DNA of 64,000 nucleotides from Lysobacterales bacterium 63-13 (GCA_001899855.1 MKWR01000022.1:6456-70455), one strand, 5' to 3'. Shown: positions 4,037 through 20,000, counted from the first letter of the stretch. The notes: a model not told the origin generated them from the sequence alone. A program made the numbers and translations.

Positions 4037-4858
4037 TCAGCCCCGGCCACACTGGCCGGCGTTGGCGACATCGGCAATGCGCCGATGCAGGGCGTCGAGA
4101 CCGTCGAACAAGGCCGCCGGCCCGGGTTGCAGGATGATCGGCGCCTTGATTTCGTACAGATGTCCGTTGCGCACCGCCGGCATGTCCTGCCAGCCCGGCC
4201 GCGCGGCCATCGCTTGCGGGCGGAATTTCTTGCCGCACCACGAAGCGAGGATCAGATCCGGCTGCCGGCGCACGATTTCGCCGGGATCGGCAATGATGCG
4301 ATCGCGCGCCAGGGATTTCTCCGCCAGTTCCGGAAACACGTCATCGCCGCCGGCAATGCGGATCAACTCGGCGACCCAGCGGATGCCGCTGATTGGCGGT
4401 TCGTCCCATTCCTCGAAGTAGACGCGCGGCCGGCACGGCAAGGCGGCAGCGGCTTGCCGGACTACGGCGACATGCTCTTCGGCCGCCACTGCGTAGCGTT
4501 CGGCTTTCGCGCCAGCACCGACCATGGCACCGAGGCGACGGACATAGGCGAGGATGCCGTCGACCGAGCGATGATTGCTGATCCAGACCTCGATCCCGGC
4601 ACGGATCAGGTCCCGCGCGATGTCGGCCTGGATATCGGAGAAGCCGATGACCAGATCGGGTTCGAGATCGAGGATCGCGCCGATCTTCGCGCTGGTGAAT
4701 GCAGAGACTTTCGGCTTCTCCTTGCGTGCGCGCGGCGGGCGCACGGTGAAACCGGAGATGCCGACAATGCGCTGTTCCTCGCCCAGCGCGTAGAGAACCT
4801 CGGTCGGCTCCTCGGTCAGACAGACGATGCGCTGCGCAAACGGATCCAGCTTCGCCAT
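4037..4858 (-). CDS. Cobalamin/iron-siderophore-type periplasmic binding protein (BtuF-like)
   Basis: RIVCLTEEPTEVLYALG, ILDLEPDLVIGFSDIQ, RVYFEEWDEP; start ATG 4858. Confidence 0.85.
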   Translation of the reverse strand: MAKLDPFAQRIVCLTEEPTEVLYALGEEQRIVGISGFTVRPPRARKEKPKVSAFTSAKIGAILDLEPDLVIGFSDIQADIARDLIRAGIEVWISNHRSVDGILAYVRRLGAMVGAGAKAERYAVAAEEHVAVVRQAAAALPCRPRVYFEEWDEPPISGIRWVAELIRIAGGDDVFPELAEKSLARDRIIADPGEIVRRQPDLILASWCGKKFRPQAMAARPGWQDMPAVRNGHLYEIKAPIILQPGPAALFDGLDALHRRIADVANAGQCGRG

Positions 4859-5472
4859 CAGGGATAGAGCAGCCGCCGGCTCCAGACACCCGCGCGCGCT
4901 TCGTAACGATGACGGTCGTGCAGGCGGAAACTGGCTCCGTACCAGAACTCGAAAAGGTCGGGGCGCAGGCGATAACCGCCCCAATGTGGCGGCCGCGGCA
5001 CTTCGCCGCCGGCAAAGCGCTGCTCGAACTCGGCGACGCGTGCGTCGAACACTTCGCGCCCGGGCAGTTCCTGCGATTGCAGCGAGGCCCAGGCACCAAT
5101 CTGGCTCAGCCGCGGGCGCGTGGCGAAATACGCGTCGGAAACCCCCGCATCGAGCTTCTCGACACTGCCTTCGACGCGCACCTGGACCTGCTCTCGCAGG
5201 GTTTTCCAGTGGAAGGAAACAGCCGCCTGAGCGTGCGCGGCCAACTGGCCGGCCTTGGCACTTTCGTAATTGCTGAAGAACTGCAGGCCGTCGTCATCGA
5301 GGTGCTTGAGCAGGACGATGCGCGAGGACACGCGACCATCACCGGCAACCGTGGCAAGGTTCATCGCCGTCGGTTCCGGATCCGCGGCGGCGTGCGCTTC
5401 GGCGAGCAATCCGCGCAGGGTTTGGATCGCTTCCAGATAGAGCGGGCTGTATTCGGCGGGGCTGGTATGCAT
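4858..5472 (-). CDS. pdxH: Pyridoxine/pyridoxamine 5'-phosphate oxidase
   Basis: EPTAMNLAT, RIVLLK, YFATRPRLSQIGAWAS.QS, PPHWGGYRL, EFW, RLHDR, RLLYP. Confidence 0.96.
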   Translation of the reverse strand: MHTSPAEYSPLYLEAIQTLRGLLAEAHAAADPEPTAMNLATVAGDGRVSSRIVLLKHLDDDGLQFFSNYESAKAGQLAAHAQAAVSFHWKTLREQVQVRVEGSVEKLDAGVSDAYFATRPRLSQIGAWASLQSQELPGREVFDARVAEFEQRFAGGEVPRPPHWGGYRLRPDLFEFWYGASFRLHDRHRYEARAGVWSRRLLYP

Positions 5473-5515: not shown

Positions 5516-7078
5516 TCAGGGTCGCGGCGTCGCAGCCTGCATTGCCCGCGCCAGCACCTCGATGTTGATCGGCTTGGTCAGGTACTGGTCGGCACCGGCA
5601 TTCAGGGCAACCCGGCGCGCCTCCTCGGTCGGCGTCGCCGACAAGGTGACGATATGCCCGCGATAGCCCTTGGCGCGCAAGCGAAACACCGCCGTGTTGC
5701 CCGACAAACCGGGCAACTCGACATCGACAAGGAGCACGTCCGGCGGGTCGGCGAGCGCGCTTTCCACGGCAGCGCCGGCATCGCCGACGATGCGCACGCG
5801 GAAGCCGAGATCGCTCAGCCAGGTATCGAGCAGGTAGCAGATGTCGGGATCATCATCGACCACCAGCACGCTGCGGATGCGCGACGATTCAAGGGCGGGG
5901 GTCTCCTCCGTGCCCCCCTGCGGCGCAGCGACAACGCTGGCGAGACTGGGCAGGACGATGTGGAAGCACGAGCCTTCGCCGAGGCGGGACTGCAGTTCGA
6001 TGCTGCCGTGCATTTGCGTGACCAGGCGCTTGACGATGCTCAAGCCCAGCCCGGCACCGCTGCCGGCAGCCTGGCGAACGCGATTGAAGGCGACGAAAAC
6101 CTGCTCGTGCAATTCCTCGGCGATGCCGATGCCGCTGTCGCGCACCTCGATCGACAACGCCCCGTCCTGCCAGCGCAGCGCCACGCCGACGCCGCCCTTC
6201 TTCGTGTAGCGCACCGCGTTGGCGATGAGGTTGACCAGGATCTGGCGCAAGCGCAGTTCGTCGAGGACCGGTGTTTTCGCATCGAGCAACTCGACGCCGA
6301 TCGTGAACTCCAGCCCCTGATCCGCGGCCAGTGGCTGGAACATGCCTTCGAGATCCTCGACCAGGTACTCCAGATCCACGCGCACCGGTTCGAGCATGCT
6401 CGAGCGGGTGTCCGCACGCGCATATTCGAGCAGGTTTTCGGCCAGGGTGAACAGATAATTTGAATTGCGCCGAAGCGCGCGCAAGGCATGGCGGACGGAA
6501 GCGGATTGGGGCGCTTGCGTATCGAGCAGGTGCAGGTAGCCGAAGATCGATGTCAGCGGCGTGCGGAAATCGTGGCTCAAGGTGGCTATCAAGGCATTCT
6601 TCAACGCATTCGCCTCGGCGAGCCGCATGCGCTGGCGCTCGAGTTCGCTGCGGATCTGGCGCAATTGCGCGATCGCCTTGCTCTTCTGCCCGCTGATCAA
6701 GGCGGCTTCGTTGCCGACCTGCTGCTGGGCCTGCTGGCGATCGTGCTCGCCCTGCGCATCCAGCAGCAGCACCTGGAATCCCGGCTCGCTGCCTCCGAGC
6801 AGATGCACATGCGCACTGCGCCCGTTCGGCATGTGCACGAAGGGAAGATCGATCGTCGCATCCAGCGGCATGCCAAGGAACAAGTCGCGCAACTGGTGCG
6901 CGGCGGCATCGGCGTTGTCGGGATCAAAGCCGAAGCGTGCCGGATCACCGTGCAGGTTGACCAGTTGCCAGTTTTCATCGAACTGCAGCAAAAGCGGCTG
7001 CGCGCGCTCGAACAGGAACTGCGCGACGTGGTGCTCGACGCCGGCGGAAAAGGTCGGCATTTCGTGTCTTTCGCTCAT
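5516..7078 (-). CDS. Cytoplasmic hybrid histidine kinase (PAS-like N-terminus, HisKA, HATPase, receiver)
   Basis: H-box SHDFRTPLTSI, N-box LRQILVNLIANAVRYT, DSGIGI, GAGLGLSIV, C-terminal VLVVDDD...DVELPG; ATG 7078 overlaps the stop of the GTPase gene (ATGA). Confidence 0.9.
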   Translation of the reverse strand: MSERHEMPTFSAGVEHHVAQFLFERAQPLLLQFDENWQLVNLHGDPARFGFDPDNADAAAHQLRDLFLGMPLDATIDLPFVHMPNGRSAHVHLLGGSEPGFQVLLLDAQGEHDRQQAQQQVGNEAALISGQKSKAIAQLRQIRSELERQRMRLAEANALKNALIATLSHDFRTPLTSIFGYLHLLDTQAPQSASVRHALRALRRNSNYLFTLAENLLEYARADTRSSMLEPVRVDLEYLVEDLEGMFQPLAADQGLEFTIGVELLDAKTPVLDELRLRQILVNLIANAVRYTKKGGVGVALRWQDGALSIEVRDSGIGIAEELHEQVFVAFNRVRQAAGSGAGLGLSIVKRLVTQMHGSIELQSRLGEGSCFHIVLPSLASVVAAPQGGTEETPALESSRIRSVLVVDDDPDICYLLDTWLSDLGFRVRIVGDAGAAVESALADPPDVLLVDVELPGLSGNTAVFRLRAKGYRGHIVTLSATPTEEARRVALNAGADQYLTKPINIEVLARAMQAATPRP

Positions 7079-7575
7079 CTGGCCAGCCTTTTCGCAAGCT
7101 CCAGAAAGGCCTGCTCGACACCGTCCCCGGACAGCGCGCTGGTTTCGATCACCGGCATGGTCTGGCGCAATCCGGCCAGCGTTGATGGCCCGACTTCCCA
7201 GCGTTCCACCAGATCGAGCTTGTTGACGATGAGCACCGCCTCGGCATCTTCCAACACGCTGCGCGATTGCAGCAACAGGTCGATTGCCGTGCGCAGGCTG
7301 GCCTCGCGCGTGCCGTCGGCAACCAGCAGCAGGCCGCTGGCACCGCGCAGATAACTCATGTTGAGCGCATCGAGCACGCTGCGCCCGGCGATATCCCAGA
7401 CCACCAGTTTGAGCATGCCAAGCTCGCCGAGATCGACTTCCTTGCTGTCGACCTTGACCCCGACCGTGGTCAGGTAGGTGTCGGAAAACGTATTGCGCAT
7501 GTAGCGTGCGACCAGGCTGGTCTTGCCGACGCCAAAGTCGCCGAGCATGCAGATCTTGCGTGCCGGCGCGGTCAT
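7075..7575 (-). CDS. Rab-like Ras-superfamily small GTPase (Rup-type)
   Basis: G1 GDFGVGKT, G2 TTVGV, G3 WDIAG, Rab-like YLRGASG, G4 NKLD, G5 TSAL; 166 aa. Confidence 0.92.
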   Translation of the reverse strand: MTAPARKICMLGDFGVGKTSLVARYMRNTFSDTYLTTVGVKVDSKEVDLGELGMLKLVVWDIAGRSVLDALNMSYLRGASGLLLVADGTREASLRTAIDLLLQSRSVLEDAEAVLIVNKLDLVERWEVGPSTLAGLRQTMPVIETSALSGDGVEQAFLELAKRLAR

Positions 7576-9338
7576 CGGGTGACCTCCACGACCTGTACGC
7601 GCAGCATTGCCGCGCGGATCGCGGCGGTTGCATCGGCGGCAGTGACCAGCGTGGCCGCATCGAGCAGCTCGCTGGCGACTCCGGCGTTGCGCAGATTCTC
7701 GCGCAGCCAGCCTGCGCGTTCCTCGCGCAAGCGTGCATTGAGCTCCGCCGCGCCCGTCGCATCACTGCAGCCGTGGATGGCCAGGTGCACGCGTACACCC
7801 GCCACAGCCGCCAATGACTGCGCCTCGCGCAGCGACGTGGCCAGTTGCCGGAGCAGGTCGCCGCTGGCAGCCAGGGGCACGGTGTCGTGGCTGAAGTGCA
7901 AGCTTGCCTGCTCGATTTCCGCGACCAGCGCATGCAACGCGTCCCTTGCCGCTGCCTGTGCGTCGACGGGATCGCTCGCTGGCCGGGCGGCCGGCATGAT
8001 CTTAGGTGAGTCGGCAGTCGCCCGCACCTGCCAATCGACCGCCCGCACGCCGGCAATCCAGGCCGCCTGCGTGCGCCGTCGATCGATCCATTCACCTGCG
8101 GCCTCGCCGCTGACGACGAGCACGCCATCGGCAACACCCAGGGATACGCTCGCCGGCGCATCGAGCAGACGTCGCGCGCGCTTGAGCACGATGGCATTGT
8201 CACTGGAAAGATAGCCGGCAACCTCGACGCTGGGCTGCACTTCGCCCAGATCAGCCCGATCGAGCAGCGGCTGCAAGGGCTCGGCATCGGCATCGAGCAA
8301 GCCGTGCACGCGCAATTGACGCCATGGCCTGGCATCAATCGCGGTGAGCAGGAATCCGGGATGTGCGCGCAGGCCCGCTTGCAGCGCCTCGACGCGCTCA
8401 TTCCAGCGCGCGATGTGCAGGAAATACCAGCCCAGCGCCAGCGCGATCGCCAGTCCGATGAGCAGCAGCGGCCACAGTGAGGGACGCTTGCGCGGACCCG
8501 CATCGGCGTCGCCCAAGGCAGAGCTGGCTGCCACCAGGGCAGCCGGTTCGAGATTGGCGGAAAGGCCCAGGCGCGCGATGCTTTCATCATCCAGCGTGTC
8601 CTCGCCTGCATCGGGGAATTGCGCATGGATCTGCTCAAGGCGATCACTCAGGACCACACGCAGGGATGCCGGCGGCACGCCGCGGATGAAACAGGCCAGC
8701 GAGGCGCGAGGGCCATCGAGCACCCACAAGAGGTGTTCGCCGATGCGCACGGCCTCCAGCGACTCGGCACCTTCGCCGCCGACCGAATCGCGCACGAACT
8801 GGGCAATCGCGGTGAGCATGCCAGCAATCGCGTCGGCATCCAGATCAGGCAGGCCGGGCGAGGATTCGCGATGCAGGAGCAGTCCCGAATCGCGTTCGAT
8901 GAGGAACACGTGATCGATCTGGTAGCGAAGGCTGTGCTTGAGGACGATCTGCGCAAACGGCACGCCGCTGCGCCAGGCCTCGATGCGCCAACGCATGCCG
9001 CGCCGGCTGAAGCCGTGTTCAAGCACCTGGTTGAGATCGCGCATCATGCCGCGCAACGCTTCGGCAATCGCCTTGCGGATGATCGGGCCGATCACCGGGA
9101 ACAAGGCATCGACAATGCTGGCGCGATTCCTTTGCACGGCATTGCCGAGTGCCGCGGCCACCGGCGATGCCAGCGCGCGACTCATCGGCTCGGCCGGGGC
9201 AGCCCTGACCAGGCCCGGCAACTGCGCGGCCAGCTCGCGGTTGACACGTTCGAGTTCGACGATGCGCTGTTCGGCCGTGGCAAGCTTGTCGCGCTCGTCG
9301 GCGAGCAGCAGGTGCCGGAGTCGGTCGAAGTCGCTCAT
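7572..9338 (-). CDS. Membrane-anchored protein: coiled coil, longin/roadblock-like cytoplasmic domain, TM helix, BON-like region, OmpA-like C-terminus
   Basis: VFLIERDSGLLL...DAIAGMLTAIAQFVRDS pattern; TM LWPLLLIGLAIALALGWYFL; C-terminal IHGCSDATGAAELNARLREERA resembles OmpA GHTD..G...N..LS..RA. Confidence 0.72.
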   Translation of the reverse strand: MSDFDRLRHLLLADERDKLATAEQRIVELERVNRELAAQLPGLVRAAPAEPMSRALASPVAAALGNAVQRNRASIVDALFPVIGPIIRKAIAEALRGMMRDLNQVLEHGFSRRGMRWRIEAWRSGVPFAQIVLKHSLRYQIDHVFLIERDSGLLLHRESSPGLPDLDADAIAGMLTAIAQFVRDSVGGEGAESLEAVRIGEHLLWVLDGPRASLACFIRGVPPASLRVVLSDRLEQIHAQFPDAGEDTLDDESIARLGLSANLEPAALVAASSALGDADAGPRKRPSLWPLLLIGLAIALALGWYFLHIARWNERVEALQAGLRAHPGFLLTAIDARPWRQLRVHGLLDADAEPLQPLLDRADLGEVQPSVEVAGYLSSDNAIVLKRARRLLDAPASVSLGVADGVLVVSGEAAGEWIDRRRTQAAWIAGVRAVDWQVRATADSPKIMPAARPASDPVDAQAAARDALHALVAEIEQASLHFSHDTVPLAASGDLLRQLATSLREAQSLAAVAGVRVHLAIHGCSDATGAAELNARLREERAGWLRENLRNAGVASELLDAATLVTAADATAAIRAAMLRVQVVEVTR

Positions 9339-9360
9339 GCCGAAGTGGCGCTGACGAAGA

Positions 9361-10011
9361 TCAGCGTGATGGCAGTTCGAATTCGCCCTTCAGACGCAGC
9401 GCGAGCTCGGTGAGCAGTGCCGACAGATCCTCGCGCCCGACCTTCTCCGTGCGCAGCTCGGAGCTGGCACGCGAGACGGCGCTGGCGGCCTCGCTGGCGC
9501 GCTCGTTGAGCGCCGAGGAAAGCTCGGCCAGGGCATCGCGCAGGCGTTCGTCGACGGCCTTGAGCTCGCCATCCAGTCCTTCCAGCGCATTGTTGATTTC
9601 AGCGCGCGCGGTGCGCGCCGCCTGCTGGGTGCGCGATTCAAGATCATCGACGGCCTGGTTGCGATCACCGACTTCCTGGCGCAACTGCCGCGAGAGTTTC
9701 TCGAACTGTTCGTCAAGGCGCTTGTCGAGCTGTGCCAGGCGCTTGTCCTGGCTGTCGCGCAAGCGGCTCATCTCCGCCTCGAGGCGCTGCCCCATTTCCT
9801 GGAAGCGGCGTTCGTAGTCGCGCATCTGGCCGCCGAAGAGGATGTCGCGGATCTGGTCGACATTGCCGTCGGCATCGGCAGCGGGTTTCTTGGGCTCGGA
9901 CATCGTGCTTTTCCTCGCTGGCGCCGGGAGCTTCCTGGCGGCGACGGCAAGTTTATGCGAAGCCGGCCGGGATCCGGGTGTCTTGCGCTTGGATTTGCCG
10001 CTGGCAGCCAT
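9361..10011 (-). CDS. Coiled-coil protein of the GTPase operon
   Basis: VDQIRDILFGGQMRDYERRF followed by a long heptad-rich helix; GGGGAG RBS ahead of ATG 10011 (alternative start 9903). Confidence 0.75.
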   Translation of the reverse strand: MAASGKSKRKTPGSRPASHKLAVAARKLPAPARKSTMSEPKKPAADADGNVDQIRDILFGGQMRDYERRFQEMGQRLEAEMSRLRDSQDKRLAQLDKRLDEQFEKLSRQLRQEVGDRNQAVDDLESRTQQAARTARAEINNALEGLDGELKAVDERLRDALAELSSALNERASEAASAVSRASSELRTEKVGREDLSALLTELALRLKGEFELPSR

Positions 10012-10060
10012 GACGATACTCCCCTTTGCCTTGTCAACAAGCCATTGAAAAAGAATTCCC

Positions 10061-10759
10061 TCAGGTCTGCTCGAGGCGATAGCCGTGCTGGTAGACCGCC
10101 GCCAGCCGCCAGCCGTACTCGCCATTCAGGTCGAGTTTCTTGCGCAGGCGGCTGACATGGGTATCGACCGTGCGCGTGGACACCGAGGCATTCATGTTCC
10201 AGACGTTTTCCAGCAAGGCATCACGGCTGACGATGCGCCCGCTGCGACGAAACAGGAAACTGGCCAGGTCGAACTCGCGCGGGGTCAGCTCGACCTCCTT
10301 GCCGTCGTAGGAAATCCTCCGCCGCCGCGTATCAACCCGGTACGGTGGCATGTCGTACTGGCCGCTGTCGGCCCCTTCGATACCGATCCGCCGCAGCACG
10401 GCCGCCACGCGCGCGATCAGCTCCTGCTGCTTGGCCGGTTTGACCACGTAATCATCGCCACCGGCATTCAGGCCGCGCACCATGTCGGTGTCGCTGGCGC
10501 GCGCGGTGAGGAAGATCACCGGCAGGCGCGAATTTGCCGATGAGCGGATCCAATCAATGACATCCAGGCCGCTGGCATCGGGCAGCATCCAGTCGAGCAG
10601 GAGCAGGTCGATTGCCTCGGAACCCAGCCGGCGCCGGAATTCGGCAGCCGACTGGAACAATCGGGTGCGATAGCCGGCTTTTTCGAGCCAGTGCAGGATC
10701 AGGCCGGACTGCTCCGGATCATCTTCGAGAAAGCCGATCACAAGTTCGGAATTGCCCAT
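10061..10759 (-). CDS. OmpR/PhoB family response regulator
   Basis: FLEDD, LLLDWMLPD, DDYVVKP, LTPREFDL, RTVDTHVSRLRKKL, GYRLE. Confidence 0.93.
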   Translation of the reverse strand: MGNSELVIGFLEDDPEQSGLILHWLEKAGYRTRLFQSAAEFRRRLGSEAIDLLLLDWMLPDASGLDVIDWIRSSANSRLPVIFLTARASDTDMVRGLNAGGDDYVVKPAKQQELIARVAAVLRRIGIEGADSGQYDMPPYRVDTRRRRISYDGKEVELTPREFDLASFLFRRSGRIVSRDALLENVWNMNASVSTRTVDTHVSRLRKKLDLNGEYGWRLAAVYQHGYRLEQT

Positions 10760-10974: not shown

Positions 10975-11178
10975 TCACTCTACGACGAAGGTGATCCGCA
11001 GGTTGACCCGCCATTCCTGGATGTGTCCGGATTTGTCGGTGACCACCTTGGTTTCGCTGACCCAGGCGCCCTGGATGTTCTTGACCGTCTCGGCGACCTT
11101 CTTCAGCCCGCTCTGCACTGCATCCTCGACGCCCTTGGTGGATGAACTGCTGAATTCGATGACTTTGGCAACTGACAT
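10975..11178 (-). CDS. Dodecin family flavin-binding protein
   Basis: MSVAKVIEFSSSSTKGVEDAVQSGL...WRVNLRITFVVE; 67 aa. Confidence 0.88.
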   Translation of the reverse strand: MSVAKVIEFSSSSTKGVEDAVQSGLKKVAETVKNIQGAWVSETKVVTDKSGHIQEWRVNLRITFVVE

Positions 11179-11245
11179 GATGCAAGTCTCCTTTTCCACG
11201 AGTGGTTTGGCGACTATAGCAAAGCGTGGTCAGCGAACAAGTTGT

Positions 11246-11752
11246 TCAGGTCGCCATGGCCGCAACGGGACGCGGCTTTGCCGGCACGTAGCGCAACCAG
11301 ACCAGGAACACGATCAAGGCATCGAGCACGATCAGGGCCTGCCAGAGATACTCGTGGAACCACTTGAACCAGACCGGGCTCCACATGCCGAGGTAAAACA
11401 GGCTGACGATGCGCACCACGTTGAGGATCTGGATGGCGAGGAAACCGAAGAAGAGGCCGAACAGCTTGTGCTTCCACGGTGCCGGGAAGGCGAGGATCGC
11501 GGAAATCAGGATGATGACTGCCTCGACACCGTTGCAGCCCCGCTCGATCGAGACGATGAAGCTGCCGCTGGCATTCTGGATCAGCTTGCCGTTGGAAATG
11601 GTGCTGCCATCGAAGAGATGGATGACCCAGGCACAGATGTCGGCCAGCACCGAGGTGAACGGCACGATCACATGACGCTCGACCGGACCGGTCAGTTCGG
11701 CGACAAAGAGAACCACGAGCAGGACCAGGAACAACAGGATGAAGCGAAACAT
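11246..11752 (-). CDS. xrtH: Exosortase H-type transpeptidase
   Basis: Short multi-TM protein with catalytic Cys (IERGCNGVEA), Arg (LNVVRIVSLFYLG) and His (WFHEYLWQALIVLD); start ATG 11752. Confidence 0.82.
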   Translation of the reverse strand: MFRFILLFLVLLVVLFVAELTGPVERHVIVPFTSVLADICAWVIHLFDGSTISNGKLIQNASGSFIVSIERGCNGVEAVIILISAILAFPAPWKHKLFGLFFGFLAIQILNVVRIVSLFYLGMWSPVWFKWFHEYLWQALIVLDALIVFLVWLRYVPAKPRPVAAMAT

Positions 11753-12024
11753 CGGCAGCAGCGACCCCGGGGAAACCCCAAGTGTAGTCGACTGCCGGCC
11801 AAGCTTCACCGGTTGCCGCGGGAATCACCGCAAACCGGCGTCATGCACCAGCCCGCATGTTTCATGATTTCGCGCGATGATCGCGCAGGATCGCGTTTGC
11901 ACAAGGGATTTCCCGAAGCAGCGCCGTATCGGGCCATATGGTCGACTGAGGGAAATCCCATGTGCGGACAAGAGACCGGCGAGGGCGCGTGCAATTCATG
12001 AATCATGCGGGCTAGCATCGACAC

Positions 12025-12585
12025 ATGAATCCCGCCTCCAACATTTTCCTGATCGGGCCGATGGGCGCGGGCAAGACCTCGATCGGGCGGCGTCTGGCGG
12101 CACAGCTCGGCCTGCGCTTCATTGATCTCGATCTGGAGTTCGAGCAGCGCACCGGGGCGAGCATCGCGCTGACCTTTGAAATCGAGGGCGAAGCCGGCTT
12201 CCGCAAGCGCGAGAGCGAACTGCTCGGCGAGCTCGTGCGCCAACGCGGGGTAGTCCTGTCCACCGGCGGCGGCGCCGTGCTCGATGCGCGCAATCGCGAA
12301 CTGCTGCGCGGCAACGGTTTCGTGGTCTGGCTCGACACCGACGTCGACGCCCAGCTCGAGCGCCTGCACGCGGACCGGCAACGCCCCCTCCTGCAAGGCG
12401 TGGATCGCCGCGAAAAACTCCTGCGCATGGCTGAATTGCGCAACCCGCTGTATGCCGAAACCGCCGACCTGCGCGTCAGCGCATCAGGCTCGGGCAGCAG
12501 CGCGGCAATGGCCCGCCTGGTTGGCGCGCAGATCGCCCGAACCTGGCAACAAGCAGAAACGGAAACCACGCATGATCGAGCTTGA
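12025..12585 (+). CDS. aroK: Shikimate kinase
   Basis: [40 protein letters not shown]. Confidence 0.96.
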
Positions 12586-17032: not shown

Positions 17033-20000
17033 TCAGGCTGCCGGGATGGCGTCATCGCCCGGCGTGCGGCGCAGCCGTGATCGTGCCAGCCACGGCTCCA
17101 GCGTGGCTTCGAGCACCGCCGCCTTGATCGGCTTGCGCAGGAAGCCGTCCATGCCGGCCTCGCGCGCTTGCGCCTCCTCGTCACCGGTGGCGCGCGCGGT
17201 GATGGCGATGATCGGCAGGTGGCGGCCGCTTTCGTGCTCGCGCTCGCGCACGAGTCGGGTCAGTTGCAGGCCATCGATGCCGGGCAGGTCGAGATCGACC
17301 AGGGCAAGGTCGACACCGGCCTCGTTCAACATCGCCAGCGCCGCCAGGCCGTGCGCGGCATGGCTGTGCCGATGCCCGCCGGCCTCAAGCATTCCGCAGA
17401 TGACGGCGGCAATGGTCGGATCGTCCTCGACGACGACAATGTGGGCGATGCCGGCCGCGCCGGGCGCAGCTGTCGGCTCGATCGCCGCTTTCGACGACGC
17501 CGCATGGCGCGGTCGCGAACGGCGCTCGATCGGCTCGCCGGCCGGTGCCTGAAGAGGCAGTTCGACGGTGAAGCGGCTGCCCTCGCCGGGTGCGCTCTCG
17601 ACCGTGATGCGCCCGCCCATCAGCTCAACCAGTTCGTGGCAGATCGACAGGCCAAGGCCACTGCCGCCAAAGCGCCGCGCCAACTCGGAGGATTGCTCGA
17701 ATCGGCCAAACAGGCGCTCGCGCATGTCGGCGCTCATGCCGGGACCGGTATCGCTGATGGTGAAGCGGATGCCGGCATCGCCGCAGCCGGTCAGGGCGAG
17801 GGCAATCTGCCCGCGCTCTGTGAACTTGATCGCATTGTTCACAAGATTGAACAGCACCTGCTTGATGCGCAGCGCATCGCCGACCACCCAGGCCGGTGCT
17901 GTGGCGTCGATTTCCGAACGCAGCGCCAATCCCTTCTTGCGCGCCAGCGGTTCCTCCAGTTCGATCACTTCACGCAGCAGGCTGGCTGGCTGCAGGGGTC
18001 GATGATCGAGCTGGAACTTGCCGGCCTCCATGCGGGCCAGGTCGAGGCTGTCATTGACCAGGCGCAGCATCAGGTCACCGGAACGGCTGATCGCCTCGGC
18101 GTAGCCGCGCTGCCTTTCGTCAAGCTGCGTGCCGCGCAGCAATTCGGCCATGCCAAGCACGCCGGTCATCGGCGTGCGGATCTCGTGACTCATGTGGGCG
18201 AGGAACGCGGACTTGGCTTCGGCCAGTTGCTCGGCGGTACGCCGTTGTTCCTCGGCCAGCGCCATCGAGTGGCGCTGGTCGACGCGATCGCGCCAGGCGC
18301 GAAAGGCCAGCCAGACCAGCAGCACGGCCATCATCAGGTAACCGGAAAAGGCCCATGGCGTGAGCCAGGCCGCCGCGGCGACTTCAATGGGAATCTCGAC
18401 CGTGGTCGGGCTCCACACGCCGTCCGCATTCGCGGCACGAACCTGCAAGCGGTAACTGCCGGAGGGCAACTGCGAGAACACGCGCTCGCCACGCGCGCCG
18501 GTCTCCACCCAGTCGCTGTCGAATCCTTCCAGCTTGAAACGATACTGGTTGCCACCGGGATTGAGGAAGGACAACACCCGCGCCTGCACGGACAAATCCT
18601 GGTCGCCATGCTGCAAGGCAATCGGCTGACTGGCATCCAGTTCGATTCGACTGCCCTCGCGGCGGATCGACATGGCCGTCAACTGCAAGGGCGGCGCTGG
18701 CGAATCGAGCGAGATCGCGGCGGGATCGAAGGCGAATACGCCGGCACGCGAACTTGCGTAGATCGTGCCATCGCCGGCAACGGCGAAATCGCCGATCAGC
18801 TCCGCGCTCGGCAAGCCATCGCGCTCGCTGAACTGGCGAATGCGCCCATTCCGTGCATCGATCCGCCACAAGCCGCGCTGGCTGGCCGCCCAGACGCTGT
18901 GGTCGGCGGCCACATGCAAGGCGCTGACCTGCATTGCCGGCCAACCCTCGGCACCGGACAGGTGCTTGAGCAAGGACAATTGTCCATCTTTCCATGCGTA
19001 CTCTTCGAGTGCACCGAGGCGGTGCACCCAGAGTGCTTGCGCACCATCGAAGGCCAGCGCGTCGATCGCCCCGACCGGCGCTCCCGGCACCGCCTCGAAG
19101 CGCGCTTGCGTGGCGTTGTAGCGCTCCAGCCCGGCGGCCGTGGAGATCCACGGCTGTGCCGTCGCATCGAAGGTGAGGTCGGAGATGTCGGCGTTGCCGA
19201 GCGTGCCCAGCGCCACCGACCAACTGCGGATCGCCGCGGTCGCCGCATCGATGCGCGCCATGCCGCCGCCACGCAGGCTCGCCCACAGGCTTCCATCCGC
19301 TGCCCGCGCCAGGCGATTGACGTAGCCGCGCGGCAGGGCCTGTGCCGAATCGGCGGCAACTGGCAACTCGAGCATGCGCGCCGCGTCGAGGTCATAGCGG
19401 CGGATGCCGCGCTGATGGCCGACCCAGAGTTGCTGGCCAATCTGCAACATGGCGCGAAGCTGGCTGCCGCCGGCCTGCAGGCGCGCGCCGTGGCGTTCGA
19501 CGGCACCGGTGTCGCCATCGATGCGGTCGATGCCATCACGACCGCTGCTGACCCAGATGCCGCCATCCGCGGCGACACTGATTGCCTCGGTCTGCGTATG
19601 CAGGAGGCTGTTGGCCTGGCCCGGGCGGTGCCGCCAGACCGCAAAGTTCTTCCAGCGCGCAGGCAGGCGCGCGATGCCGGCATCGAACATCGCCACCCAG
19701 AGTCCGCCCTCGCGGTCGCGCAGCACATCCATGACCCGCGCGGAAGGCAGCTCGCCCGGCAAGGCATCGCTGCCGCCGTAGCGGTGCTGCTCGCTGCCGG
19801 TCAGGTGCAGCAGGCCGCCGGTGGTGCCGATCCAGTAGCGATCGGCGGCGGCGCTGGTCATGGCCATGGTCGGCATGCGTGAGGGCAAGTCGACGATGCC
19901 TTCGACCGCATGCAGGTCGGCGGCGACCCGGGCCACGCCGAAATCCGTGCCGACCAGCATGCTGCCATCGTCCTGCGCGCGCAGGCTGCCAATCGACAGG

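Follow-up and report, generated by a model that had tools for sequence, protein, structure and literature searches.

A five-gene Group 1 Rup (Rup1) module from Lysobacterales: conservation, predicted domain anatomy and possible signal flow

Relation to described small-GTPase systems

The small Ras-superfamily GTPases of prokaryotes were split by Wuichet & Søgaard-Andersen (2014; PMC4316618) into MglA and Rup, and the neighbourhood of their Group 1 Rup is the closest described counterpart of the locus considered here. In the parts of that paper to which all our statements about it refer, the gene for a cytoplasmic coiled-coil protein, DUFY, is followed by DUFX (a domain of unknown function, often joined to a transmembrane helix and an OmpA domain), by Rup itself and by the output, which is a histidine kinase or else a c-di-GMP enzyme and has an invariant Gln in its N-terminal region. 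The order DUFY>DUFX:OmpA>Rup> is given in Table S2 of the paper for Bacteroidetes, Chloroflexi, Cyanobacteria, Nitrospira and the alpha-, delta-, epsilon- and gamma-proteobacteria. Group 1 Rup does not have the G3 motif's catalytic Gln, for which a Gln provided in trans by the output protein was proposed, and no interaction of Rup with MglB homologues was predicted. Later phylogenies name the group Rup1 and place it together with the Rab/Ras/Rho/Ran GTPases of eukaryotes and Asgard RasL. Here we describe a block of five genes at positions 5516-10759 of a 64,000-nucleotide stretch of DNA from Lysobacterales bacterium 63-13 (GCA_001899855.1 MKWR01000022.1:6456-70455; this whole stretch is referred to as the window, and positions are counted from its first nucleotide), which we identify from its sequence as a Lysobacterales (Dokdonella-like) Group 1 Rup (Rup1) module of a five-gene subtype.

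The genes are consecutive and all lie on the minus strand. In order of transcription they encode an OmpR/PhoB-family response regulator (10061-10759 (-), 232 amino acids (aa)), a coiled-coil protein equivalent to DUFY (9361-10011 (-), 216 aa), a 588-aa membrane protein equivalent to DUFX (7572-9338 (-)), the 166-aa Rup1 small GTPase (7075-7575 (-)) and a hybrid histidine kinase (5516-7078 (-), 520 aa). An earlier reading of the same DNA, hereafter the original prediction, had proposed five co-oriented genes of this content, and open reading frame (ORF) calls together with Pfam and NCBIfam matches confirm both the orientation and the content.

We assign the block to Rup1 because the size of the GTPase, its G3 motif (WDIAGR), the gene order, a kinase output with the invariant residues Q118-Q120 and the absence of a Robl_LC7 gene all match the published group. 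The GTPase is a single Ras-superfamily domain, and its 166 residues lie within the 150-240 aa used to define Rup1. The order DUFY > DUFX (with transmembrane helix and OmpA) > Rup > histidine kinase is the same, as is the presence of a G3 Asp without the Gln; a conserved Gln in the N-terminal region of the output protein is likewise common to both. The block differs from the published group, as far as the parts of the paper used here represent it, in its taxonomic origin, the Group 1 Rup rows of Table S2 including neither Lysobacterales nor Xanthomonadales, and in the presence of a co-conserved OmpR-type regulator upstream. In addition, the DUFX of the block is predicted to consist of a coiled coil and a longin-like domain, followed by a transmembrane helix, a pair of BON-like units and, last, an OmpA-like domain; the N-terminus of the kinase is predicted to be PAS-like.

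The original prediction had ranked the block as a candidate for an undescribed system. This part of the claim is not borne out, since comparative genomics had already described the Group 1 Rup neighbourhood (PMC4316618), together with a hypothetical interaction model much like the relay that the prediction went on to propose. Its statement that Rup GTPases are essentially uncharacterized does stand; we found no experimental study of Group 1 Rup (Rup1) in the literature, including by way of the locus tags of the published genes.

The actinobacterial conservons (CvnA-D, Mfp) combine similar parts, in that one operon supplies a histidine kinase together with a Roadblock-type protein and a small GTPase as a single signalling unit. 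Their GTPase belongs, however, to the MglA family, their kinase is a membrane sensor and they include a DUF742 protein, whereas they possess neither a wall-binding protein nor an adjacent response regulator.

Conservation of the gene core

The gene order was followed in two sets of loci. The first comprised 80 Lysobacterales genome loci, with presence scored where the contig has room; the second, more distant, comprised 80 loci kept from at least 587 relatives, which were obtained by scanning metagenome contigs with an alignment of relatives that share only about 35% identity with the window. Among genome loci the closest (L001, from a metagenome-assembled genome of a Lysobacterales bacterium, JADJHN010000002.1) is 96-97% identical at the protein level, and the other close relatives belong to Dokdonella, Tahibacter, Rhodanobacteraceae, Ahniellaceae and Pseudolysobacter. 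The order coiled-coil protein > DUFX > GTPase > kinase was found in all 80 Lysobacterales loci with room. In the window, the genes for DUFX and the GTPase, and those for the GTPase and the kinase, are joined by the 4-nt stop/start overlaps reported in the original prediction, both readable as ATGA on the minus strand (7572-7575, read as cccgATGAccg, and 7075-7078, read as ccagATGAgcg), and the start of the GTPase gene has a GGAGG Shine-Dalgarno sequence 8-12 nt upstream of the overlap at 7572-7575. The overlap of DUFX with the GTPase (-4) is kept in 59 of the 70 scorable Lysobacterales loci, and that of the GTPase with the kinase (again -4) in 68 of 69. This arrangement is far beyond chance, and the comparison of sequences shows the four-gene core to be inherited as a unit and translationally coupled.

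One alternative is that the block forms no functional unit, being an orphan hybrid kinase and an OmpR regulator that happen to lie beside a GTPase and unrelated genes for envelope proteins, or that it is part of an anti-phage defence island. The region aroK-xrtH-dodecin-response regulator-...-pdxH is usually syntenic across Lysobacterales, and the synteny from aroK to pdxH could reflect vertical inheritance; the coiled-coil protein, moreover, weakly matches the tail of ZorA. In seven Lysobacterales loci (L023, L039, L078, L067, L074, L077 and L080), however, the core is present without the regulator in other chromosomal contexts. In L023 and L039 it is placed just downstream of an ORF of 445 aa that is hslU-like by sequence, and in L078 it is found without the same flanking genes. 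These loci suggest, from their sequence, that the core has moved as a unit, and they argue against mere vertical descent as the cause of its conservation. Because the core also travels together through very divergent metagenomic lineages, with its stop/start overlaps conserved, we regard the absence of a functional unit as extremely improbable, co-conservation in these sequence comparisons having effectively refuted it. A defence system was also considered and rejected: four of the five proteins have no PADLOC family, and the ZorA matches of the coiled-coil protein lie in one stretch, score 16-23 bits and are read as coiled-coil composition.

Beyond Lysobacterales, a profile of the cytoplasmic part of DUFX, searched against 1.84 billion cluster representatives (50% identity), matched 4214 clusters at E ≤ 1e-3, of which 1689 remained at E ≤ 1e-30. 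The order coiled-coil protein > DUFX > GTPase was found in nearly all 80 distant loci with room, a match to the coiled-coil hidden Markov model (HMM) lying directly upstream of DUFX in 64 of the 80. The gene after the GTPase follows closely, the gap being at most 8 nt in 39 of the 47 distant loci that have a called downstream ORF, and its product varies. Among 35 complete downstream proteins from these loci, 29 have HATPase_c, 23 of them with a receiver and 14 with Hpt in addition, while three have HD_5 (HD-GYP-type) and one is a sigma54 activator. A constant three-gene front end followed by a fourth gene that is swapped is the pattern expected of a sensor or switch with interchangeable output. 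As separate observations, loci L084, L105 and L118 have two tandem DUFX paralogues before the GTPase, the first of about 1015-1075 aa and the second of about 630 aa, and in locus L113 a second GTPase gene is found some 1.8 kb from the first.

The regulator behaves differently from the core. About 68 of the 80 Lysobacterales loci have it upstream of the coiled-coil gene, and 16 of the 52 distant loci with room have a near-orthologous OmpR-type response regulator (E 1e-61 to 1e-71) directly upstream of that gene. In those 16 loci the downstream gene, where scorable, is always of a hybrid-kinase class of about 516 aa. Because the regulator is tied to this kinase class, we regard the five-gene form as a conserved subtype, with the regulator outside the universal core. 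The original prediction had placed all five genes in one signalling operon; the core of coiled-coil protein, DUFX, GTPase and output is indeed kept across very divergent lineages, but the OmpR-type regulator goes with one subtype only.

Anatomy of the GTPase and its candidate envelope partners

The GTPase is a bare G domain (Pfam Ras 4.8e-28 over residues 7-164; Roc 4.6e-23) without extra domains, C-terminal tail or lipidation tail. Its sequence carries all of the nucleotide-binding motifs, namely GDFGVGKT (G1), the switch-I Thr, WDIAGR (G3), NKLD (G4) and ETSA (G5), and among proteins of known structure it is closest in sequence to Rab1, Sec4 and Ypt1 (about 1e-21). An HMM built from orthologues of the window GTPase matches the GTPases found in coiled-coil > DUFX > GTPase context at 1e-46 to 1e-62, and 56 diverse relatives defined by this context were used for motif statistics. 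In G1 their consensus reads G-x-F-[AGS]-V-G-K-T-S, and 53 of the 56 have Phe where Ras has Gly12; the G1 motif of the window lies at 7528-7536 (-). The G3 consensus is W-D-[LIV]-[AY]-G followed by Glu, Ser, Asn, Asp or Arg, with the Asp present in all 56 and Gln, at the position of Ras Gln61, in none.

In Ras, a bulky residue at position 12 combined with the loss of Gln61 leads to very low intrinsic hydrolysis. Phe at the Gly12 position and the missing Gln61 equivalent would similarly imply very low intrinsic hydrolysis in this family, with a GTPase-activating protein (GAP) mechanism unlike the insertion of an arginine finger by RasGAP, and the motifs therefore point, as far as sequence can indicate, to an unusual hydrolysis mechanism.

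The G3 Asp, invariant here, also separates the GTPase from MglA, which lacks it (PMC4316618), and the protein is much closer to the Rabs. Pfam searches found no Robl_LC7 (MglB-type) match in any of the five proteins, or, at E-values up to 10, in 14 cytoplasmic fragments of DUFX proteins. The original prediction had called the GTPase Rab-like and had placed it in the Rup group outside MglA, and both assignments agree with the Pfam Ras match, the Rab1, Sec4 and Ypt1 relatives, the retained G3 Asp and the lack of a Robl_LC7 gene.

The MglA/MglB pair of Myxococcus and Thermus nevertheless resembles the block in that a small Ras-superfamily GTPase is encoded beside a protein of the Roadblock/longin-group fold, a fold that is predicted for the block, and MglB regulates the nucleotide state of its GTPase. 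On this analogy, and given the coiled-coil proteins of the module, the block could be a polarity switch, in which Rup and its Roadblock/longin-like partner mark a pole or division site, the coiled-coil protein serves as polar scaffold and the kinase reads position. MglB, however, is a small soluble Roadblock dimer detectable with Pfam Robl_LC7, whereas the domain in the block is undetectable by sequence and has, in the model, the longin rather than the Roadblock helix order. Unlike in MglA/MglB, this putative regulator domain is fused to a transmembrane helix and predicted wall-binding domains, and the output is two-component. Such a partner, anchored in the membrane and, as predicted, bound to the wall, could not move from pole to pole, and there are no motility genes among the annotated flanks pdxH, dodecin, XrtH and aroK. 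Taken with the Rab-like sequence and G3 Asp of the GTPase, these differences lead us to consider a polarity switch of the MglA/MglB type quite improbable.

The partner in question, the 588-aa DUFX protein, has no Pfam match and only faint matches to OmpA-family NCBIfam models (2e-4), and a profile search of PDB sequences returned nothing relevant. Its anatomy was examined in an AlphaFold2 model (md2104dcf4db3) built from 41 homologues, with a mean predicted local distance difference test score (pLDDT) of 81. DUFX is a bitopic inner-membrane protein, for which the model predicts a coiled coil and a longin-like domain in the cytoplasmic half and a BON-BON-OmpA-like region in the periplasmic half. 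Residues 1-124 (8967-9338 (-)) form the cytoplasmic coiled-coil-like part, made of long helices (3-45, 52-70, 72-110 and 112-124 in the model) and beginning with the motif DFDRLRxLLL in invariant columns.

Residues 128-280 (8499-8957 (-)), the most conserved part of the protein, with the motifs LIERDSGL, DADAIAGMLTAI and GPRA.LACF, are predicted to fold as a longin-like alpha/beta domain. The topology modelled over residues 140-279, beta-beta-alpha-beta-beta-beta-alpha-alpha, is the longin order, and 17 of the top 50 Foldseek matches of the DUFX model in the PDB are longin domains (E 2.7e-4 to 2.5e-3), among them the TRAPP core (7b6d_C, 2.7e-4), Mon1-Ccz1 (5ldd_B, 3.5e-4), Fuzzy-Inturned (9rs8_A, 6e-4), CPLANE (7q3e_C, 6e-4) and AP sigma subunits. 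Their target-normalized TM-scores range from 0.21 to 0.65, the low values arising from multi-domain target chains. Foldseek gives no aligned query range, and we assign these matches to residues 128-280 because this is the sole segment with the longin order of strands and helices. Pfam searches for a longin or Roadblock domain in DUFX, at E-values up to 10 and across 14 family members, found none, and the longin-like domain is offered here as a structural prediction, not as established homology.

TRAPP and Mon1-Ccz1 are known guanine nucleotide exchange factors (GEFs) for Rabs, and some longin domains serve as platforms for small GTPases. The longin-like domain of DUFX is, on the strength of its modelled fold, a candidate regulator of the neighbouring GTPase, acting as a GEF or GAP platform. 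Eukaryotic longin Rab GEFs (TRAPP Bet5/Trs23, Mon1-Ccz1 and Fuzzy-Inturned/CPLANE) are its best structural matches, and the GTPase encoded next to it is itself Rab-like; the likeness, however, is one of predicted fold only, with no sequence homology. The eukaryotic longin GEFs are also heterodimeric, whereas the block has one longin-like domain per chain, possibly in a homodimer, and that chain would be membrane-integral and wall-anchored. That DUFX contains a genuine longin-type regulator of a Rab-like Rup1, so that the longin-Rab pairing, a signature of membrane traffic in eukaryotes, already exists in bacteria, is a proposal we make tentatively from the model, and we would sooner expect it to fail than to hold.

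A single transmembrane helix, WPLLLIGLAIALALGWYFLHI, follows at about residues 289-312 (8403-8474 (-)), where the Kyte-Doolittle profile of DUFX has its maximum (2.22 at residue 291, in a segment at about 291-309) and the model a helix from 289 to 325. Because the basic sequence RKRPS precedes this helix, the positive-inside rule places the N-terminal half in the cytoplasm. The other four proteins have no transmembrane segment, their hydropathy profiles containing no window of 1.6 or above. Some databases name DUFX homologues ‘MotB’, and a MotB-like stator was considered and rejected, no acidic residue being visible in the transmembrane helix and no MotA-like gene being present among the annotated neighbours.

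The periplasmic half would begin with two BON-like alpha/beta units (residues 329-440; 8019-8354 (-)), which match OsmY (8rjx, 8e-5), BonA (6v4v, 2.3e-4), DolP and the two-domain Rv0899 (2l26) in Foldseek; two distant members of the DUFX family, P0293 and P0357, have Pfam BON matches above the cut-off. Residues 457-588 (7575-7970 (-)) are predicted to form an OmpA-C-like peptidoglycan-binding domain, modelled over 457-585 as beta-alpha-beta-alpha-beta-beta, with OmpATb (2kgw, 1.7e-5) and also Pal, YiaD, YfiB and OprF among its Foldseek matches. The domain retains the motif G-x-S-D-x-x-G...N-x-x-L-x-x-x-R-A, in which Asp526 is conserved in at least 90% of the family and Asn534 and Arg541 are invariant; in such domains a conserved Asp and Arg make contact with the stem peptide of peptidoglycan. 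Pfam OmpA scores above the cut-off in 8 of 10 distant DUFX members and below threshold in a ninth. The OmpA-like assignment made in the original prediction is thus confirmed by the predicted fold, the Asp526/Asn534/Arg541 motif and the Pfam OmpA and BON matches of distant relatives, but its description of the protein as a sensor was overstated, the OmpA-like domain being known as a peptidoglycan anchor.

Among the BON and OmpA-like envelope proteins (M. tuberculosis ArfA/Rv0899; E. coli OsmY, YiaD and DolP), it is Rv0899 that the periplasmic architecture of DUFX resembles. The YfiB-YfiR-YfiN relay for envelope stress shares with the block the coupling of an OmpA-like wall-binding protein to a cytoplasmic signalling enzyme, although YfiB, unlike DUFX, is an outer-membrane lipoprotein acting through a periplasmic repressor. 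In none of these BON/OmpA proteins, nor in the Yfi system, is there a longin-like domain on the cytoplasmic side or a GTPase as partner.

The remaining partner, the coiled-coil protein, has only weak coiled-coil-type matches in Pfam and PADLOC. The mechanical ORF reaches 10125, but a GGGGAG Shine-Dalgarno sequence precedes the ATG at 10011, which is likely, on sequence grounds, to be the true start and leaves 49 nt after the stop of the regulator gene. The protein consists of a basic N-terminal tail, a near-invariant NVDQIRDILFGGQMRDYE, a long helical region and a conserved C-terminus, EKVGREDL...LRLKGEFELP. The tail, MAASGKSKRKTPGSRPASHKLAVAARKLPAPARK (9904-10011 (-)), which is rich in Lys, Arg, Pro and Ala and precedes NVDQIRDILFGGQMRDYE, has similar counterparts in L067, L074 and L077, and could bind membrane or nucleic acid. 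The conserved parts of this protein (9840-9875) and of DUFX (9300-9338) both begin with D-x-[IL]-R-x-[IL]-L-[FL]-G, which might be a shared binding motif; homology between the two N-termini is not supported, as hhalign aligns just 11 columns (E 0.15).

Kinase output, possible signal flow and genomic setting

The kinase has the domains of a hybrid histidine kinase (Pfam HisKA 1.1e-13, HATPase_c 6.9e-28 and Response_reg 6.5e-22). Neither an Hpt domain, by Pfam, nor a transmembrane segment, by hydropathy, was found in it, and because it has no transmembrane segment we take it to be soluble. Its residues 109-520 (5516-6754 (-)) comprise a signalling helix, HisKA, HATPase_c and a C-terminal receiver. 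The regulator consists of a receiver and a winged-helix DNA-binding domain (Response_reg 2.6e-23, Trans_reg_C 4.9e-24), with the acidic pocket, phospho-Asp, Thr and Lys of the receiver intact. In the two proteins the H-box, the N/G boxes and the receiver Asp/Thr/Lys are all preserved (LSHDFRTPL, DSGIGI, GSGAGLGL, VDVELPG, TLSAT and LTKP). With Pfam matches above the cut-off and the hydropathy result, the soluble hybrid kinase and OmpR regulator named in the original prediction are secure. A second hybrid-type histidine kinase is encoded at about 17111-18250 (-) of the window, and over HisKA-HATPase-REC it shares about 31% identity with the block's own kinase.

Residues 1-108 of the kinase (6755-7078 (-)) appear to form a divergent PAS-like domain. 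Orthologues were gathered with the full-length kinase, a word-indexed search with the N-terminus alone having given a single match, and 26 of them were used for an AlphaFold2 model of residues 1-146 (mf86633ffd65a; pLDDT 90), in which a helix, two strands, helices and three strands lead to a long helix that runs into the dimerization and histidine-phosphotransfer (DHp) region. The best Foldseek matches are of PAS type (the TyrR N-terminus at 2.3e-3, YF1, FlrB and VC2136), none of them at or below 1e-3. An hhalign comparison shows homology of this domain with the N-terminus of the kinase class of about 510 aa from distant loci (99.6%), while comparisons with the N-termini of the HK-REC-Hpt and HD-GYP-type proteins were not significant (E 0.57 and 0.095). 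Kinship with the longin-like domain of DUFX was also considered, and that comparison was likewise without significance (E 0.23). The modelled PAS-like domain is a candidate effector module, that is, a candidate site of GTPase binding, and the residues Q118-Q119-Q120 in the signalling helix that follows it are invariant across the 26 orthologues.

The original prediction had proposed a relay from the cell-wall-binding protein through the GTPase to the kinase and regulator. This remains plausible and gains support from the predicted longin-like fold of DUFX. In such a relay the periplasmic BON/OmpA-like region would be anchored to peptidoglycan or membrane and would report the state of the envelope through the single transmembrane helix. 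The longin-like domain, probably dimerized by its own coiled coil and perhaps helped by the separate coiled-coil protein, would then set the GDP/GTP state of Rup, in a step resembling the action of longin or Roadblock platforms on Rab or MglA. Rup-GTP would bind the PAS-like domain or the signalling helix of the kinase and switch its autophosphorylation, and the invariant QQQ of the kinase might provide, in trans, the catalytic Gln that Rup itself lacks, a possibility raised in 2014. Phosphate would finally pass to the OmpR-type regulator, with the receiver of the kinase itself as sink or relay, and transcription would change. We consider it moderately probable, on the basis of the models, that the signal runs in this way, from the envelope state through the longin-like domain and the nucleotide state of Rup to the kinase and the regulator.

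Several points weigh against this relay. The regulator is absent from most subtypes, as well as from the seven Lysobacterales loci in which the core lies elsewhere, and hence is not part of the core, and the kinase, having no Hpt domain, leaves the route of phosphate to the regulator not evident from the gene set. The longin assignment comes from a single AlphaFold2 model and Foldseek matches of modest E-value, with no support at the level of sequence, and a longin/Roadblock fold would suit a GEF, a GAP, an effector or a mere dimerization module alike. The same parts, moreover, could be fitted to either direction of signal flow.

In the opposite direction, the kinase would be the input and its N-terminus a GAP that gives the Gln in trans, while the envelope proteins would be effectors, Rup-GTP controlling how the DUFX/coiled-coil scaffold is assembled, localized or tethered to peptidoglycan, in the way that MglA-GTP controls envelope-spanning motility complexes. 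An invariant Gln cluster in the N-terminal helix of a kinase, encoded beside a GTPase whose family has no catalytic Gln, is in keeping with this arrangement and with the in-trans proposal in PMC4316618; the OmpA-like and BON domains, too, serve for anchoring or structure and are not classical sensors of ligands, and the coiled-coil protein is scaffold-like. The kinase, however, has no recognizable sensor or other input besides its PAS-like N-terminus and no transmembrane segment, which supports a role as output. We favour flow from the envelope to the kinase over this reverse flow because the gene after Rup is interchangeable, being swapped among typical outputs (histidine kinase, HD-GYP-type protein or sigma54 activator) while DUFX stays constant, and because the co-conserved DNA-binding regulator fits a transcriptional output. 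We judge reverse flow unlikely, though we give it appreciable weight.

The block lies between pdxH (4858-5472) on one side and dodecin (10975-11199) and aroK (12025-12585) on the other, as originally stated, with an additional gene for exosortase H (XrtH; 11246-11809 (-), TIGR04177, 1.5e-52), not mentioned then, between dodecin and aroK. The XrtH gene keeps its place beside the Rup block in most Lysobacterales loci. A 1043-aa mechanical ORF at 5516-8647 (-), in which the kinase frame stays open through the GTPase gene and part of DUFX, is an artefact of high GC and not a gene. A scan of the region for promoters and terminators gave 0 promoters and a terminator count equal to background. A weak hairpin (5-bp stem) with a T-run at 10059-10076 (-), right after the stop of the regulator gene, may partly separate the regulator from the four downstream genes. 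Contigs labelled as metatranscriptome cover parts of all five genes, and one of them, 1544 nt long, spans 8857-10380, from the 3' end of the regulator gene across the coiled-coil gene into the 5' part of DUFX. These contigs lend weak support to co-transcription, since such a library may contain DNA. The exact DNA was also found in bioreactor and wastewater metagenomes.

The window thus adds a clean and complete example, with structural predictions, of a known module, and not a new kind of system. New here are the five-gene subtype, the scale of the family, the Phe at the Gly12 position and the anatomy predicted for DUFX (longin-like, BON) and for the kinase (PAS-like). The module is abundant, the cytoplasmic profile of DUFX representing more than 4000 protein clusters at 50% identity, and its cultured carriers in this lineage include Dokdonella immobilis, D. 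soli, D. fugitiva, D. ginsengisoli, Dokdonella sp. MW10 and Tahibacter aquaticus. If the longin-like domain does control the GTPase, the module would be a tractable bacterial model for the regulation of Rabs by longin domains, and would represent a new coupling of the state of the envelope to two-component signalling through a G protein. It would also bear on the origin of the eukaryotic small-GTPase toolkit; the pairing of a Rab-like GTPase with a longin domain would here be connected at one end to the cell envelope and at the other to outputs of the two-component or c-di-GMP kind.

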